Part shown: in pieces, positions 3,680-42,072 of the stretch
How the letters are laid out: the number at the start of each line of letters is the position of its first letter
How positions within the stretch are numbered: the first letter of the stretch is position 1
Position numbers and translations under genes: made by a program
The notes under the pieces: generated by a model
Seen by the model: only the letters and a program-made list of their open reading frames with translations
The model's database searches: none
Told to the model about the DNA's origin: nothing
Virus genome (UHGV): UHGV-1834803
Source: a virus
Direction: 5' to 3' (one strand)
DNA: 42,379 nt

Positions 3680-3824
3680 TTGGACTCCATCCAGTGTCAG
3701 AAAGAGTTGCGGCTGGCGATTGCCAGCCGCCTTTCTCGTTCCATCCTGGAACTGTGTCTTACCGACACATTGTCATCCTGACGCCGATAAGATACATGAT
3801 TTAAAATTATAGGTAAACACTTAC

Positions 3825-4418
3825 TTACTGTTTGTTATAAACAAAACCAATATCTTTCTTGTGAGGCATATCTGCTGCGGAAAAAGCTGCGATCTTCGCG
3901 AGTCGATCACATATTTCATTTTCACGATGCCCGGCGTGGCCTTTAACCCACTTCCAGCGAACATTATGTCGACTTGCGGCCTCATCCAGACGCTTCCACA
4001 GATCAACATTCTTTACCGGTTTTTTGTCAGAAGTCATCCATCCATTGCGTTTCCACCATTTCATCCACTGTGTCATGCCGTTTTTCAGATACTGGCTATC
4101 AGAGTGCAAAATAACGTTGCATGGATATTTCAAACGCTCCAGCCCGATAAGTGCCCCCATCATCTCCATACGGTTATTGGTGGTGCTATGAAAACCATCT
4201 GAGAACTCGCGTTCCTCACCACGATACTGGAGAACTATACCGTAACCGCCCGGGCCACCCGGATTTTTAAGGCAAGAGCCATCACTGAAGATTTTCACGG
4301 TTTTAAGCTGGGGATTGAATTCTACGACAGGCGTTGTGGGATTGGTGCGGGGAGAATTTTTGTTTTTGTCTTTTTTGCGAGTTTTTGCTTGCGACCGGGC
4401 TGGTGTCTTCGACGTCAT
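3825..4418 (-). CDS. rnhA: ribonuclease HI with basic N-terminal extension
   Basis: [21 protein letters not shown]...[11 protein letters not shown]...HSDSQY...KPVKNVDLW...[12 protein letters not shown] closely matches E. coli RNase HI from memory. Confidence 0.85.
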
Positions 4419-4439
4419 ATAAACTCCTGAATCAAGCGC

Positions 4440-5001
4440 CGCGCCGATTTTTTTTCCTCGCGCGTGCGCACACGCGTGCGTGTAATAATTATTAAAATAA
4501 ACAAATTACTTCCCAGTACAGGTTTTTATAAACCTGAACTGAACGAACGAAGTGAGTGAAGTTCACCTCGAACGAAGTGAGAGGTTGTCTTTTCAGGTAA
4601 TACTCTCCCAGGGAGGTGAGTATAAAATTCCTCACCAACCTGGTCGTTTCATAACCTGAAAAGTTATGGTCTAAGTCTACTGCCAGCTTAGACTTGGGAA
4701 GTTATGGATGACAGCACCCCAGAACCGAGATCTTCCCACACTTTATGAAGGGGAGTACTGGATTCAACCTCTCGAAACACCCCAGACTCGACAATCATAA
4801 AGTGACCCTTGTCTCCGCTCACTTTGGTTCCCCCTTCCCCGACACCTAAACGGCACCGGTTCTACGCTGGTAGTGAGCTTTTTTAAACCTGACGCCAGTG
4901 ACGCTTACCCCCACCCATCAGGTCGAGTCTCCAGTCTACGACTGGAAACTATCAGATCTTAGCACTTACAATTCATCTTATGAATAGTTTGTACTTATCT
5001 A
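4440..5001. other. ~560-bp ORF-free, hairpin-rich region (candidate structured ncRNA or regulatory/origin region)
   Basis: No ORF >=60 aa on any frame; alternating GC tract, direct repeats GAACGAAGTGAG, several nested stem-loops. Confidence 0.3.
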
Positions 5002-5232
5002 TCATTTCGATTGATTATTTTCTCGACCATGTAGTTGAACATTCAAGGCAAACACCTCGTTGATCAACTCACCTAAAAGCTGTTCAACAAGTTCGCGATG
5101 CTCCCCAAGATGCAAGCACTTAATTGCCCATTCGTACAAGTTGAAAGCCTGCTCGCGATCTTTCATCATTTCACGAGCCTTAGCCAGAAAATCGCTCTCT
5201 ACGAGCGCAACAACATTGGTCGGGTATGGCAT
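5002..5232 (-). CDS. hypothetical protein (76 aa)
   Basis: Intact ORF with SD-like context. Confidence 0.4.
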   Translation of the reverse strand: MPYPTNVVALVESDFLAKAREMMKDREQAFNLYEWAIKCLHLGEHRELVEQLLGELINEVFALNVQLHGRENNQSK

Positions 5233-6012: not shown

Positions 6013-6076
6013 CTTCTTTCTCGATAGGTAAGTGATTACCTATTTTTGCATTTGATTTTATGTATGGCAATCAAAT

Positions 6077-15531: not shown

Positions 15532-15604
15532 GTATCACCAAATAAAGAGGGCCACTAAATATAGTGGCCCATGTTAATAGATAAGCACTTACCTATCAAT
15601 GAGA

Positions 15605-20147: not shown

Positions 20148-20401
20148 GTGTTTTTCCTTTGTGGTTATTTTGATACAAATTTTAAGAGCAATGAGAAGGT
20201 AAACAACTATGCATAACGGTATGTTAGGAATGAAACGAGCGTCTTAATATACAAAATTTATAAGTAAGTATATACCTATTTGTTGTGACGCAACTTTGCT
20301 TGTCTGTATGACTAAAAATAAGACAGGATCACTGTAGAACGCTATGAGAGCTATTTTGAGGAGGCGTAGATTCTATCTACGCCAATATACGATCTGGAGG
20401 G

Positions 20402-23765: not shown

Positions 23766-23804
23766 GATAGGTAGATACTAACTTATATAAATTTTACTGT
23801 AAAC

Positions 23805-25687: not shown

Positions 25688-25749
25688 GTGTTTTCCTATG
25701 TGGTTGTTATGTGAAAATAATAAGTAAGTACTTATATATTTTCAAGAGA

Positions 25750-29155: not shown

Positions 29156-29272
29156 GTGTTTCTCCTTGTTGTGATTTGGCCGATGGCGCTATGCGCGTTG
29201 GGCTTTCGTTCATTCGTGGCTCTTTCGAGCTGTTAAATGATAGATCAGTACTTACTTATTATCTATCAAAAA

Positions 29273-39646: not shown

Positions 39647-40909
39647 ATGCCTTTTTTAATTTTCATTATTATACTACTGCTCACCGTGATTTTTTGGGAT
39701 TGGGTTGTTTTAAATGGTCAAATTGTTGGAACATTGGCTACAGCATTTGCTTTTATAGCAACAGCATGGAATGCCTACGAAGCGAGAAAAAGTGCAAAAG
39801 CAGCTTTTTCAGCCCTTCAATTAACAACAGAATCATTGTTCGAAATGCGAAAGAGTGCATTTAAACAATGGTTTGATTCCTTATTAAATCAACATGATGA
39901 GCTATGTCTTCTTGCAAAACAAATTATCGATAAACGCAAAATTAATTTAAACAGCGATGAGTTACATAGACTATATTACCCATTGGTAAAACAGCATGAG
40001 GTAATACAGTATGTGAAGCATATTATTAATATTTTTGAGTATGTGGATAGTTCATTTTATATTGATGGGGAATGTCTAAAGGAAAAAAGAGCGTATGTGT
40101 CACAATTAATTTTCAAAATCCCACCTCAGATGAAGTTGATCATTGCTATCTTTGGATTAAAGATCGATTATTGTGAACATATTAATTCGGGAAAACTGTG
40201 TTGTTTATTAAATAAATATGATTTTTTCAATGATGAAATATTTTTTGATGATGCTTATTCAGATATGCCTTATCTGGATGCATTCATAAACCTTAGATTC
40301 AACAAAATATTCAAATCTCGAATGATAAATTATTTTGATAATATCATTAAAAGTTATTATGTTCCATCGGACGTTAAAAGGGACTGGATGTTTCGAGACC
40401 CAAAGCTCGTACCGTCGGTTCTTATGAATTATAAAACTCCTTGTTCTCCTATAATTAATGATTACTTTGAGAAGTTGCCTTTACATGTAAGAAACTACTT
40501 TGAGGAACTACTTAAAACCGCGAATGATAGAGTTACTCATTTTGACGTTTACATCCCACGCCTTATTGGTTGTTCAATCGTGCAACATTACGAAGATGTG
40601 CCTTCCGAAAAAAACAGGTTAAATGACAGGAATGATGTAATAGCTATGGCTGAAGATTACATCGAGAAAAGAAAATCTAATCAACTAGATTACATACTTG
40701 AAGATATATACTTCAAGAGTGACGAAGATATAATCCCAGGCCACCATTTGATTGTGGCATTTGATGACTATGAATTTAAATTATCACTCATTAAGATAAA
40801 TGAGAATAAAGATAGCGATAATCTTTTAAATCGAATTTATACTGAATCCAGTAGCATGGTTAAAGAATATAAGCGCGAAATATTAAAACTGGGCGACTAT
40901 GTAAAGTAA
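39647..40909 (+). CDS. AT-rich membrane-anchored protein of unknown function
   Basis: N-terminal hydrophobic helices then ~370-aa soluble domain; AT-rich, Asn/Lys/Ile/Tyr-rich composition unlike neighbours. Confidence 0.5.
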   Translation: MPFLIFIIILLLTVIFWDWVVLNGQIVGTLATAFAFIATAWNAYEARKSAKAAFSALQLTTESLFEMRKSAFKQWFDSLLNQHDELCLLAKQIIDKRKINLNSDELHRLYYPLVKQHEVIQYVKHIINIFEYVDSSFYIDGECLKEKRAYVSQLIFKIPPQMKLIIAIFGLKIDYCEHINSGKLCCLLNKYDFFNDEIFFDDAYSDMPYLDAFINLRFNKIFKSRMINYFDNIIKSYYVPSDVKRDWMFRDPKLVPSVLMNYKTPCSPIINDYFEKLPLHVRNYFEELLKTANDRVTHFDVYIPRLIGCSIVQHYEDVPSEKNRLNDRNDVIAMAEDYIEKRKSNQLDYILEDIYFKSDEDIIPGHHLIVAFDDYEFKLSLIKINENKDSDNLLNRIYTESSSMVKEYKREILKLGDYVK

Positions 40910-40923
40910 ATTGCACTGTTCAA

Positions 40924-40954
40924 CAAAAAAGGGGCCGAAGCCCCTTTGAATTTT
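40924..40954 (+). terminator. intrinsic terminator (GGGGC-CGAA-GCCCC + T-run)
   Basis: Hairpin and T-run 15 bp after the stop at 40909. Confidence 0.6.
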
Positions 40955-41019
40955 GCGCTGAAAAAAGTGTTGCTAGGATGTTAGCAAGCTATGGTTAAGA
41001 ACGTCTGCCGTAATTATCT

Positions 41020-41100
41020 ATCACAGCGTTGAGCGGTCTGGTTTATGTTAGCGGAGTCTTAATCGAGTTGATTAAAAGGCCAAACCGCTCAACGCTGTGT
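41020..41100 (-). other. long-stem hairpin immediately 3' of tRNA-Ser
   Basis: ~20-bp near-perfect inverted repeat (CACAGCGTTGAGCGGTCTGG / CCAAACCGCTCAACGCTGTG) around a ~40-nt loop. Confidence 0.35.
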
Positions 41101-41101
41101 C

Positions 41102-41188
41102 TGGCGGAGAGTAATGGAATCGAACCATCATCGTTTGCACAATGGGACGGTTTTCAAGACCGCTTGAGCACCATGCTCCCTACTCTCC
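41102..41188 (-). tRNA. tRNA-Ser (anticodon UGA), type II, encoded CCA
   Basis: Hand-folded: acceptor GGAGAGT/ACTCTCC, anticodon loop CTTGAAA, long variable arm, T-loop TTCGATT. Confidence 0.7.
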
Positions 41189-41287
41189 AGCTATTGTGAT
41201 GGTCGGTGCTGAACTCCGACACAGGGTTGTAGCAAGCCCCGCAAAGCGCGCACTACTGTAGTTGCGGCACATCAGCCTGTGCATTCA

Positions 41288-41367
41288 TCACAATGGTAAG
41301 ATCACTACCTTTCGACCAGTCATTGTGCACATGAACGACGATTAACCGTAATGATATTATCGTTGTG
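41288..41367 (-). ncRNA. long-stem hairpin element A (candidate small stable RNA)
   Basis: ~16-bp stem (CACAATGGTAAGATCA / TGATATTATCGTTGTG, with wobbles); paralogous to element B. Confidence 0.3.
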
Positions 41368-41417
41368 TTGTGAAGCCAGATGCTTATCTTCTGGTTGCTT
41401 CAAAGAGCTGCACTTCC

Positions 41418-41507
41418 TCACAACGGTAAGAGCACTGGTCTGACTCTATCGATTTACGGCCTTGTGGGTCAGTATCGCCGATTCGCCCAATGCTCTTACC
41501 TGTTGTG
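41418..41507 (-). ncRNA. long-stem hairpin element B (candidate small stable RNA), abutting the tRNA-Thr 3' end
   Basis: ~16-bp stem (CACAACGGTAAGAGCA / TGCTCTTACCTGTTGTG) around a ~55-nt interior. Confidence 0.3.
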
Positions 41508-41508
41508 T

Positions 41509-41584
41509 TGGTGCCGGTTAACGGACTTGAACCGCTGGCCATTCGCTTACAAAACGACTGCTCTACCAACTGAGCTAAACCGGC
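41509..41584 (-). tRNA. tRNA-Thr (anticodon UGU), encoded CCA
   Basis: Hand-folded 76-nt cloverleaf: acceptor GCCGGTT/AACCGGC, anticodon loop TTTGTAA, T-loop TTCAAGT. Confidence 0.65.
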
Positions 41585-41588
41585 AATT

Positions 41589-41675
41589 TGGTGGGGAGTG
41601 ATGGAGTCGAACCACCCGAGTCGCCATGACAGTAGATTTACAGTCTACACCGCTACCTCTACGGACTAACTCCCC
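41589..41675 (-). tRNA. tRNA-Tyr (anticodon GUA), type II, encoded CCA
   Basis: Acceptor GGGGAGT/ACTCCCC, anticodon stem-loop GTAGA-CTGTAAA-TCTAC, long variable arm. Confidence 0.75.
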
Positions 41676-41680
41676 TAAAT

Positions 41681-41755
41681 TGGCGATGGTGGGTGGATTC
41701 GAACCACCGACCAGTTGGTTAACAGCCAACTGCTCTACCGCTGAGCTACACCATC
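41681..41755 (-). tRNA. tRNA-Asn (anticodon GUU), encoded CCA
   Basis: Acceptor GATGGTG/CACCATC, anticodon stem-loop GTTGG-CTGTTAA-CCAAC, T-loop TTCGAAT. Confidence 0.75.
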
Positions 41756-42072
41756 AATTCAGCACTGCCAGTATTTATTACTCAACAGTGCCAATCGCGA
41801 CGGTTTAGTTTCTGCCAGGAAACGCACCGCTACTTGCACTTTTCGTTAGTGCCAGACGCTTTCGACTTCGCTCAATAGTAGAAGGGGGAACCGCAGAATT
41901 CGGAAAAAATCGTACGCTAAGCTAACGGTGTTCTCGTGACAGCTCTTTGACTAGGCTTTCTAAGGCCATTCTGATAGCCCTGACTTCCTGAAAAGCCATG
42001 GCTAAAATTTGTGCGGCTAAAAGGGATAACCGATGGTAAAGTAAGTTATCCCTGTCGAGATACTGAAAAGCG

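Follow-up and report, generated by a model that had tools for sequence, protein, structure and literature searches.

Few large structured non-coding RNAs (ncRNAs) are known from bacteria, and most of those that lack a known function occur in organisms that are hard to handle. The described systems closest to the locus considered here are GOLLD, ROOL, OLE and raiA, RNAs of several hundred nucleotides (nt) that have many helices and invariant loops and junctions, lie on phage or mobile-element genomes in regions free of open reading frames (ORFs) and better conserved than their neighbours, and have no obvious base-pairing target. RNAs of the GOLLD and ROOL type are typically associated with tRNA genes in prophages, both form oligomers, and GOLLD is expressed during lysis. 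The shared properties of the four recur in the virus genome UHGV-1834803, of which a stretch of 42,379 nt, called the window in what follows, was analysed. Here, positions 4490-4950 of the minus strand are probably a stand-alone gene for a highly structured ncRNA of about 460 nt that belongs to the SSU5-like phage-plasmids of the Enterobacteriaceae. This RNA differs from its counterparts in matching none of their Rfam models and in its host range, as it is carried by Enterobacteriaceae phage-plasmids, whereas GOLLD, ROOL, OLE and raiA are found in Lactobacillales, rumen bacteria and extremophiles. It is also smaller than GOLLD, ROOL and OLE, is expressed in lysogeny and, unlike GOLLD and ROOL, lies about 36 kilobases (kb) from tRNA genes, four of which are located at 41.1-41.8 kb.

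Two further groups of RNAs bear comparison. RNA II of ColE1, like the RNA described here, is a structured, untranslated transcript of about 0.5 kb that has its own constitutive promoter and belongs to an extrachromosomal replicon. In ColE1, RNase H cuts the R-loop of RNA II into a primer, and here the RNA adjoins a gene for this enzyme (rnhA); both RNAs also have G-rich segments and an AT-rich stretch downstream. A primer cut by RNase H from an R-loop is likewise thought to underlie the RNA-based origins of mycobacteriophage prophages that lack RepA (PMC7157519). In contrast to ColE1 and to these prophages, the replicon here has RepA, and one lineage keeps the RNA without rnhA and without the downstream palindrome. 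Neither an antisense partner of the RNA I type nor a Rop-like protein was identified, although no systematic search for an antisense partner was made. The c4 RNA of P1 and P7, the CI RNA of P4 and the CA RNA of N15 are, as here, ncRNAs of lysogenic plasmid-prophages that sit within an operon of the same direction. While these RNAs are about 70-80 nt long, are processed from the operon transcript and work by way of short complementary sites in it, the RNA here is about 460 nt long and has its own promoter, and no conserved complementary site was found for it.

Conservation, covariation and fold of the element

Judged by nucleotide identity, the 42-kb window is part of an SSU5-like phage-plasmid of E. 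coli. Over positions 4300-5100, identity reaches 97-99% with the Escherichia phages CMS-2020a, PhiR41_1 and Cyrano; with SSU5 of Salmonella and several Klebsiella phage-plasmids it amounts to 86-92%. The element sits between rnhA and a gene for a protein of 76 amino acids (aa), both on the minus strand, in a gap that a first-pass annotation had singled out as ORF-free and hairpin-rich and as a possible structured ncRNA, replication origin or promoter cluster. Its description of the gap is accurate: 4419-5001 contains no ORF that reaches 60 aa, the longest ones encoding 53, 48 and 44 aa, and stem-loops are present, with 13 inverted-repeat pairs found, many of them long-range. The alternating GC tract and the direct repeats on either side of a palindrome are also real (Table 1), but they are not the heart of the element, as the tract is part of the rnhA leader and not of the RNA, and the repeats fall in the 3′ domain, the least well-resolved part of the fold. 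Of the three options offered, it is the structured ncRNA that gains strong support, from a peak of conservation, compensatory changes, a conserved promoter of its own and published expression.

Nucleotide conservation rises steeply in the region and falls off again on either side. When compared in segments of 100 nt, the core at 4518-4817 shares 93-98% of its positions with SSU5 and a Klebsiella phage-plasmid, while the flanking coding sequence in the same comparison is only 57-84% identical. Between E. coli, Salmonella and Klebsiella elements, the identity of the flanking protein genes is put at 65-80%. The proposed test of folding energy against shuffled controls also came out in favour of structure, with z-scores for 4490-4960 of -5.0 on the plus strand and -5.4 on the minus strand and none of 100 dinucleotide shuffles folding as well. 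In the comparison with related genomes, base pairs are kept by double changes across lineages. RNAalifold, applied to 57 close copies of distinct sequence, predicts 128 pairs, and double changes occur in 8 of these. Pattern scans and remote homologues of the 76-aa protein led to further, more divergent lineages, which comprise L083, L124 and the group of L079, L081 and L321, together called lineage D, which is roughly two-thirds identical as judged by eye. Across 12 to 16 lineage representatives, 29 predicted pairs show pair-keeping changes on both sides. A curated structure of 128 pairs was then counted on 16 lineage representatives. Here, 95.4% of cells are paired, compared with 36-49% after a shift of the 3′ partners by 1-3 columns, and 26 of the 128 pairs carry double changes, compared with 3-9 in the shifted structures and 11.4 +/- 2.4 in shuffled ones (0 of 500 shuffles reach the observed value). 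Four segments, ACCAGCG, UUCUGGG, CUCUCACU and CGUUCGAG, are invariant across all 16 lineages, and many loop and junction segments are invariant across most of them.

Conservation of this kind could in principle come from coding constraint on a small protein, and the 44-aa ORF inside the element is the candidate. It is annotated as CYRAN_81 in Cyrano (pLF82), where it is listed as a moron expressed at 12 times background (PMC9928086), and its frame is intact in many close lineages. However, that frame is shifted or broken in Klebsiella, L048, L067, L083 and lineage D, owing to 1-nt and 2-nt indels at 4778-4781. A conserved small protein gene, named beforehand as one finding that would speak against an RNA, was not found. 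The ORF starts with GTG, no ribosome-binding site (RBS) was identified for it, and it has no Pfam match. Conservation reaches about 300 nt past it on both sides, and the substitutions are compensations in paired helices that are not concentrated at third codon positions. More broadly, no ORF keeps its frame across lineages when ORFs are listed down to 20 aa and frames are compared over 16 lineages, and a Pfam scan of the small ORFs of the element returned no match. A protein-coding origin of the conservation is, on these observations, barely credible.

Described RNA families fare no better. Rfam 15 includes GOLLD, ROOL, OLE, HEARO, RNase P, tmRNA, 6S, CsrB, C4 antisense RNA and RNAI, and a scan of the whole window with its 4,227 covariance models at the gathering threshold gives three tRNA matches only, with no family reaching threshold in the element. 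In a relaxed search of 4350-5100 the best hits are a hepatitis C virus stem-loop (19.4 bits against a threshold of 56) and two microRNAs, which are noise. A hammerhead ribozyme, considered on account of the strings CUGAUG and GAAAC, finds no support from the Rfam models, and GGA motifs of the CsrA type, counted by eye, are not enriched in the RNA. No description of the RNA was found in the literature searched.

The strand, which the first-pass annotation had left open, is most consistent with transcription from the minus strand, and this is the orientation we favour. RNAalifold gives -143 kcal/mol and 128 pairs on the minus strand compared with -113 kcal/mol and 108 pairs on the plus strand, with fewer broken cells on the minus strand. 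Counted over the helices that both strands share, the minus strand shows 15 G-U cells and 2 A-C cells, and lineage D adds G-U rather than A-C at about ten pairs. The series G-C/G-U/A-U and all of the strand-specific double compensations are found in minus-strand helices only, while the flanking genes and the annotated CYRAN_81 share the minus strand as well. The same asymmetry bears on the possibility that the conservation arises solely at the level of DNA, through sites for protein binding, packaging or recombination, a cluster of promoters, or a recent spread by recombination, any transcript being incidental. Compensation from one Watson-Crick pair to another is strand-symmetric, so that cruciforms or hairpins in single-stranded DNA would be kept equally; a palindromic box and a promoter mark the upstream edge, and the direct repeats and palindrome resemble iterons. 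However, compensation over at least ten helices, long-range ones included, fits a folded single strand and not duplex sites, the G-U intermediates are asymmetric between strands, there is a discrete peak of expression, and the repeats occur only twice, in the weakest-supported part of the element. A purely DNA-level role is therefore very unlikely.

The conserved structured unit of the RNA spans about 430-460 nt, with helices P1 to P10 followed by a 3′ domain (Table 1). P3 encloses, in addition to P4, the invariant ACCAGCG and the G-rich GGGGAAGGGGGAACCAAAG. In P8, the flanking CUG/UAG residues are paired and the closing pair runs through the series G-C/G-U/A-U. The 3′ domain contains helices 15-17, of which helix 17 has three double changes and helices 15 and 16 have none, and its segment CAACCUCUC has two possible partners. 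Two sets of mutually exclusive helices, each with some covariation, were also observed. In the first, P9 competes with a local hairpin, CAUAACU/AGGUUAUG, over 4589-4663. In the second, AGAGGUUG pairs either locally or with the distant CAACCUCU (4763-4776 / 4576-4585), the long-range helix having one double change. These competing helices may represent alternative conformations or a pseudoknot.

Table 1. Coordinates of the RNA, its structural parts and neighbouring features in the window
Feature	Position	Strand	Remarks
Proposed ncRNA gene, about 460 nt	4490-4950	minus	5′ end predicted from promoter, 3′ end from U-rich tract
P1, 5′-terminal hairpin	4926-4950	minus	unrelated sequences in ten lineages, all fold as hairpin
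P2, hairpin with GGGUGGGGG	4886-4924; arms 4909-4924 / 4886-4903	minus	15 pairs, 5 with double changes; 97% of cells paired
P3	4817-4878; arms 4873-4878 / 4817-4822	minus	double changes in 3 of 6 pairs
P4, hairpin inside P3	arms 4852-4859 / 4839-4846	minus	loop rebuilt with GAAA tetraloop in lineage D
P5, CACUUUAUGA/UCAUAAAGUG	4739-4804; arms 4795-4804 / 4739-4748	minus	compensatory changes in lineage D and L067
P6, GAGUCUGGG/UCCAGUACUC, enclosed by P5	within 4739-4804	minus	compensatory changes in lineage D and L067
P7, UGGGAAG/CUUCCCA, invariant loop GAUCUCGGUUCU	4695-4738; arms 4732-4738 / 4695-4701	minus	100% of cells paired; 3 of 7 pairs with double changes
P7a, inner hairpin of P7	arms 4715-4719 / 4706-4710	minus	100% of cells paired; 1 of 5 pairs with double changes
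P8, hairpin GUCUAAGCUG/UAGACUUAGAC, conserved loop GCAG	4669-4693; arms 4684-4693 / 4669-4679	minus	100% of cells paired; 5 of 10 pairs with double changes
P9, long helix	4589-4663; arms 4650-4663 / 4589-4602	minus	competes with local hairpin that also covaries
P10, inside P9	arms 4631-4643 / 4608-4620	minus	2 pairs with double changes; 98% of cells paired
3′ domain: CAACCUCUC, two copies of CUCACUUCGUUCG (the direct repeats first noted), palindrome, terminal hairpin	4506-4588	minus	fold partly supported
Direct repeats CGAACGAAGTGAG	4544-4556 and 4569-4581		either side of palindrome
Palindrome GTGAAGTTCAC	4556-4566
Terminal 3′ hairpin	arms 4532-4542 / 4513-4523	minus
U-rich tract AAUUUGUUUAUUUUAAUA after last helix, probable termination zone	4488-4505	minus	follows CUGGGAAGUA in most lineages
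rnhA leader, outside RNA core	4419-4483	minus	AT-rich spacer, GC palindrome, A8 run, GC-rich stretch, RBS
GC palindrome of rnhA leader, CGCGCGTGCGCACACGCGTGCGTG	4459-4482		24 nt, perfectly alternating purine/pyrimidine
A8 run of rnhA leader	4448-4455
RBS AGGAG of rnhA leader	4424-4428
-35 hexamer TTCATA	4979-4984	minus	TTnAnA at same distance in 11 lineages despite differing 17-bp spacer
Extended -10 TGcTAAGAT (TGnTAnnAT)	4956-4964	minus	kept in eleven lineages including lineage D (TGcTAACAT)
Degenerate palindromic-box copy TAGATAAGTACAAACTA	4985-5001		abuts -35, directly after stop codon of 76-aa gene
Further box sites ATAGGTAAGTnnTTACCTAT	3809-3828, 6024-6043, 15577-15596, 20260-20279, 23767-23786, 25720-25739, 29240-29259, 39516-39535
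rnhA (RNase HI), downstream neighbour in lineage of window	3825-4418	minus	Pfam RNase_H E = 1e-44
76-aa gene, phrog_5343, upstream neighbour	5002-5232	minus	three-helix protein
53-aa ORF	4334-4495	plus	overlaps start of rnhA
48-aa ORF	4492-4638	minus
44-aa ORF, CYRAN_81 in Cyrano	4688-4822	minus

Promoter, predicted transcript ends and expression in the lysogen

In the direction of the minus strand, the palindromic box comes first after the stop codon of the 76-aa gene and gives way to the -35 hexamer, a variable spacer of 17 base pairs (bp), the extended -10 element and the 5′ hairpin, which begins about 7 nt past the -10 element. From its sequence, this is a sigma-70 promoter whose architecture, TTnAnA-17-TGnTAnnAT, is conserved in eleven lineages, lineage D among them, and which places the predicted transcription start at about 4949-4951. 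A promoter cluster had been considered for the gap; in a small way this is borne out, with one conserved sigma-70 promoter and one copy of the palindromic box (4956-5001). A simple scan also calls one promoter-like site on the plus strand, at 4943-4972, that points away from the element.

The palindromic box is not confined to this locus. The 20-bp form, ATAGGTAAGTnnTTACCTAT, has eight further sites in the window where none is expected, and a perfect GGTAAGTACTTACC occupies the corresponding position in SSU5 and in Enterobacter lineages. PhiR41_1 has 13-19 sites, nearly all intergenic and located 28-150 nt upstream of start codons, and one of its boxes adjoins a repressor-like gene. The final TAT of the box starts a -10-like hexamer. 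In P1, late promoters consist of a -10 hexamer and an inverted repeat centred near -22 that binds the activator Lpa. The box resembles these promoters in being a 14- to 20-bp inverted repeat directly upstream of TATnnT that precedes many phage-plasmid operons, but its sequence is different and, at the RNA locus, it overlaps the -35 of a separate sigma-70 promoter. It looks like an operator or activator site of a phage-specific class of promoters, and its copies, which are found before dam, before the RNA and right after rnhA, would outline lytic transcription units.

At the other end of the RNA, the last helix runs into a U-rich tract that is the probable zone of termination, and rnhA, downstream of this tract, is at background in RNA-seq. 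Between the two lies the rnhA leader with its perfectly alternating GC palindrome. This alternating tract is kept in all lineages that have rnhA and is absent in lineage D; the leader is conserved only where rnhA is present, belongs to rnhA and lies outside the RNA. The GC palindrome is prone to form Z-DNA or a cruciform, and the scan also calls a terminator-like hairpin on the plus strand there.

Published RNA-seq supports a transcript that is confined to the element. The counts are taken from the S1 table of a study of the LF82/Cyrano lysogen, which covers ten samples and a 135-bp CYRAN_81 interval (PMC9928086). In LB (lysogeny broth), CYRAN_81 reaches 117 fragments per kilobase per million (fpkm), whereas the flanking CYRAN_80 and CYRAN_82 (rnhA) are at 9.5 and 8.4 fpkm, respectively (PMC9928086). 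Over the ten samples, log2(fpkm+5) ranges from 6.8 to 10.35 for CYRAN_81, with its peak at 6 h inside macrophages, from 3.1 to 5.8 for CYRAN_80 and from 2.6 to 5.0 for CYRAN_82 (PMC9928086). The interval is 12- to 40-fold above both flanks in 10 of 10 samples, with 10.3 against about 5 for the flanks in macrophages on the same logarithmic scale, and its profile parallels that of the putative repressor CYRAN_45 (PMC9928086). Because CYRAN_81 is far above both flanks, the signal points to a local transcript that is independently initiated and terminated in the dormant state. The element is thus conserved, folded and non-coding, with a conserved promoter and a local transcript in the lysogen. In the same dataset, CYRAN_43 (OV696614.1 40268-40822), annotated as a hypothetical protein, is 723-fold over background at about 7,000 fpkm, far above everything else on the phage-plasmid; a second ncRNA or a locus of the toxin-antitoxin type might lie behind this.

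A transcript that stops ahead of a silent gene would also be expected of a cis-acting leader. In this account, the lytic unit that follows, from rnhA onward, has the RNA as its long 5′ untranslated region, which controls read-through by attenuation, antitermination or processing; the lysogenic transcript would be the terminated "off" product. The RNA lies directly upstream of the downstream genes in the same orientation, the box copies upstream of it, before dam and right after rnhA would define the RNA and rnhA as one unit, it accumulates in lysogens while rnhA is at background, as a terminated leader would, and its two mutually exclusive helix pairs both covary, as they do in switching RNAs. 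Yet its own sigma-70 promoter is active in a state where the genes downstream are not expressed, conservation of the RNA far exceeds that of the gene under its supposed control, and the architecture of the RNA is unchanged where that gene has been swapped for an unrelated one. With its 460 nt and at least ten helices, it is also much larger than known attenuators and riboswitches. We consider a cis-acting leader unlikely, and the RNA gene is probably independent of rnhA.

Genomic setting, distribution and the question of an origin

The same-direction block around the element is devoted to replication and nucleotide metabolism, and includes genes for Dam methylase, a DnaQ-like exonuclease, dihydrofolate reductase, ThyA and ribonucleotide reductase. 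The RNA lies at the border between this conserved replication module and a variable accessory region. The 76-aa gene accompanies the RNA at every locus fetched through that gene, and the RNA is present in 74 of 74 IMG/VR loci retrieved in this way. A structure model of the 76-aa protein has three helices and a predicted local distance difference test score (pLDDT) of 80. The protein was considered as a Rop-like partner, but a search of the PDB by both sequence and fold gave no significant match. The adjacency of rnhA, which the first-pass annotation had noted, holds in the window but is not universal, since in lineage D the downstream gene encodes an unrelated 200-aa protein instead of RNase H, and rnhA as an obligatory partner of the RNA is ruled out on this ground. 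The next gene, two genes past the RNA in lineage D (L079:5605-5916), codes for 103 aa and contains a domain like that of Tad2, Thoeris anti-defence 2 (Pfam E = 2.5e-7). It lies in the variable region that comes after the RNA and hints that this region has an accessory or counter-defence character.

The element occurs once per genome, with the nhmmer match running from 4945 to 4488 on the minus strand. Plasmid records that contain it number 687 and span at least seven genera, among them Klebsiella, Escherichia, Enterobacter, Salmonella, Citrobacter, Cronobacter and Shigella. It is also found in 232 of 5,426 complete E. coli genomes (about 4%), where 232 of 234 places are on plasmids, of about 106-115 kb among the records listed. 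Among the RefSeq/PGAP records listed, none has an annotated feature at the position of the RNA. It is also present in 57 metagenome contigs, many of them about 110 kb long and several labelled as human gut. A distant search of genome and metagenome collections with a pattern of 25 specified bases retrieved Enterobacteriaceae elements only, and two short degenerate patterns, used in IMG/VR for more distant homologues, gave mostly random matches. Phage-plasmids of Moellerella, Providencia and Pectobacterium that have a homologue of the 76-aa gene have no detectable copy of the RNA; they keep the exonuclease, Dam and 76-aa genes and carry other accessory genes at its position. In Yersinia plasmids of the pMT1 type, neither the RNA nor the 76-aa gene gives a match. 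The RNA is near-universal in the SSU5 clade of the Enterobacteriaceae and dispensable for the wider group.

Several further observations concern the replicons themselves. The DnaE of Y. pestis pMT1-type plasmids (e.g. NZ_CP009971.1, NZ_CP155633.1) is 94% identical to that of the phage-plasmid, and the segment with the RNA and the 76-aa gene appears, from these alignments, to have been lost or replaced. In plasmid records OW967015.1 and OW969594.1 (Enterobacter/Klebsiella), the DnaE match is in two pieces over about 4.2 kb with a "hypothetical protein" between them, which may be an intein, an intron or an insertion. Within the window, a region of low GC content (29-35% at 39.5-41 kb, within 39500-41800) adjoins the four tRNA genes, which are for Ser, Thr, Tyr and Asn, and PhiR41_1 encodes a methionyl-tRNA synthetase.

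The position of the RNA within a replication module raises the possibility of an RNA-primed origin, in which the transcript would form a persistent R-loop at the downstream AT-rich stretch and GC palindrome, and RNase H, of phage or host, would cut it into a primer. Such a role would agree with an ncRNA expressed in lysogeny from its own promoter, beside RNase HI in most lineages, with G-rich runs in the RNA (GGGUGGGGG and GGGGAAGGGGG) and an AT-rich spacer and 24-nt alternating palindrome directly downstream. The phage-plasmid also encodes its own DnaE, primase, helicase and 5′-3′ exonuclease, so that a lytic origin is needed somewhere. The origin option was one of those raised at the outset, and it is the weaker reading of the gap. 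The plasmids already have a RepA-type replicon located elsewhere (IncFIB by typing; "DNA replication protein"), and cumulative GC skew shows no turn at 4.4-5.0 kb. Lineage D keeps the RNA and has neither rnhA nor the GC palindrome, and the Moellerella, Providencia and Pectobacterium phage-plasmids share the neighbouring replication genes and do without the RNA. Furthermore, a constitutive, repressor-like level in lysogens would be odd for the primer of a lytic origin, and the RNA has no Rfam match to an RNAI-type or any other family. An origin at this site is unlikely.

Proposed mode of action and significance

For the stand-alone RNA gene, the following course of events is proposed. A host sigma-70 promoter with an extended -10 element would start the RNA about 50 bp past the stop codon of the 76-aa gene. 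The RNA would begin with a protective 5′ hairpin, fold into at least ten helices linked by invariant single-stranded segments, and end at the U-rich tract ahead of the rnhA leader. It would then act in trans through its folded shape, as a scaffold or decoy that binds one or more phage or host proteins in the plasmid-prophage state. This trans-acting, shape-based, protein-binding role is a best guess that we advance tentatively, and it is suggested by the invariant loops and junctions, the lack of a conserved base-pairing target, and expression that tracks the putative repressor. It is possible, though we would not press the point, that the RNA represents a new class of large, intricately folded ncRNA that is constitutive in dormancy and acts by three-dimensional shape instead of base-pairing. 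Conceivably, such a class would be an RNA-protein machine or decoy that controls plasmid-prophage maintenance, superinfection immunity or counter-defence, a suggestion to be taken with similar reserve.

Lysogenic expression parallel to a putative repressor would be expected equally of a base-pairing regulator, that is, an immunity or host-targeting antisense RNA like c4 of P1/P7, CI of P4 or CA of N15, whose conserved single-stranded segments would block translation of target mRNAs or terminate them. Anti-immunity control in the phage-plasmids P1 and N15 relies on processed RNAs (cited in PMC3632133), and SSU5 has a gene of the antirepressor family about 1.5 kb downstream in the same direction. 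In addition, the RNA has a repeated motif, CUCACUUCGUU, with an 11-nt complement around the RBS of a small gene in PhiR41_1 and SSU5. However, this match is lost in the Klebsiella homologue though the motif in the RNA is invariant there, the RNA has about six times the length of c4 or CI, and no Rfam family, C4-type antisense RNAs included, reaches threshold. With blastn-short, no complementarity or similarity to the RNA longer than 12 nt is found in the rest of the window or in the 108-kb PhiR41_1, and antisense matches do not exceed chance (E at or above about 0.9 in the window and 2.4 genome-wide), host targets lying outside the search. A base-pairing regulator is, in our estimate, improbable. 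The complementary sites of CUCACUUCGUU lie at 32102-32112 in PhiR41_1 (L361) and at 584-593 in SSU5 (L364), and the complementarity is probably a coincidence. The corresponding 73-aa gene, at PhiR41_1 32122, was rejected as an antisense target, the site being conserved in SSU5 and lost in Klebsiella pJN2-26.

Several points weigh against a stand-alone, minus-strand RNA that acts through protein binding. The number of independent covariation events is modest, as much of the core is near-invariant among close lineages and most of the covariation comes from a few divergent ones, lineage D, L083, L067 and Klebsiella. The plus strand folds well too (z = -5.0, with a 108-pair model that has few broken cells), so the strand call rests on asymmetries and falls short of proof. 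The 3′ domain and two long-range helices have mutually exclusive, covarying alternatives between which the present alignment does not choose. The RNA-seq data are second-hand, being a count table for a 135-bp interval for which strand-specific counting is unconfirmed, and both ends of the RNA, at about 4950 and about 4490, are predicted; in a simple scan, the minus strand yielded no canonical intrinsic terminator. The protein partner in the proposed mechanism is hypothetical, and the 76-aa neighbour gave no informative fold match. Short seed pairing of 7-10 nt with phage or host mRNAs is possible. Finally, the wider group does without the RNA, as seen in Moellerella, Providencia and Pectobacterium and in the lack of a match in Yersinia pMT1-type plasmids.

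The carriers of the RNA include PhiR41_1, which infects E. coli K-12, Cyrano of the adherent-invasive E. coli LF82, SSU5 of Salmonella, and clinical Klebsiella. Because these hosts are tractable, genetics, pull-downs and structural work are immediately feasible, and the RNA, if its identity holds, would be among the few large function-orphan RNAs in genetically tractable E. coli. As a by-product, the analysis yields a genome-wide palindromic promoter or operator box that would outline the transcription units of the phage family. SSU5-like phage-plasmids, as described in the literature, carry antibiotic-resistance genes and are widespread in clinical isolates. The RNA locus is one of the few that are transcribed in the lysogen, and its level rises inside macrophages (PMC9928086). 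The element is a candidate for a new large structured RNA that lacks annotation, is widespread and lends itself to experiment, and a conserved RNA tied to dormancy would offer a plausible handle on the maintenance of phage-plasmids or on their interactions with the host.

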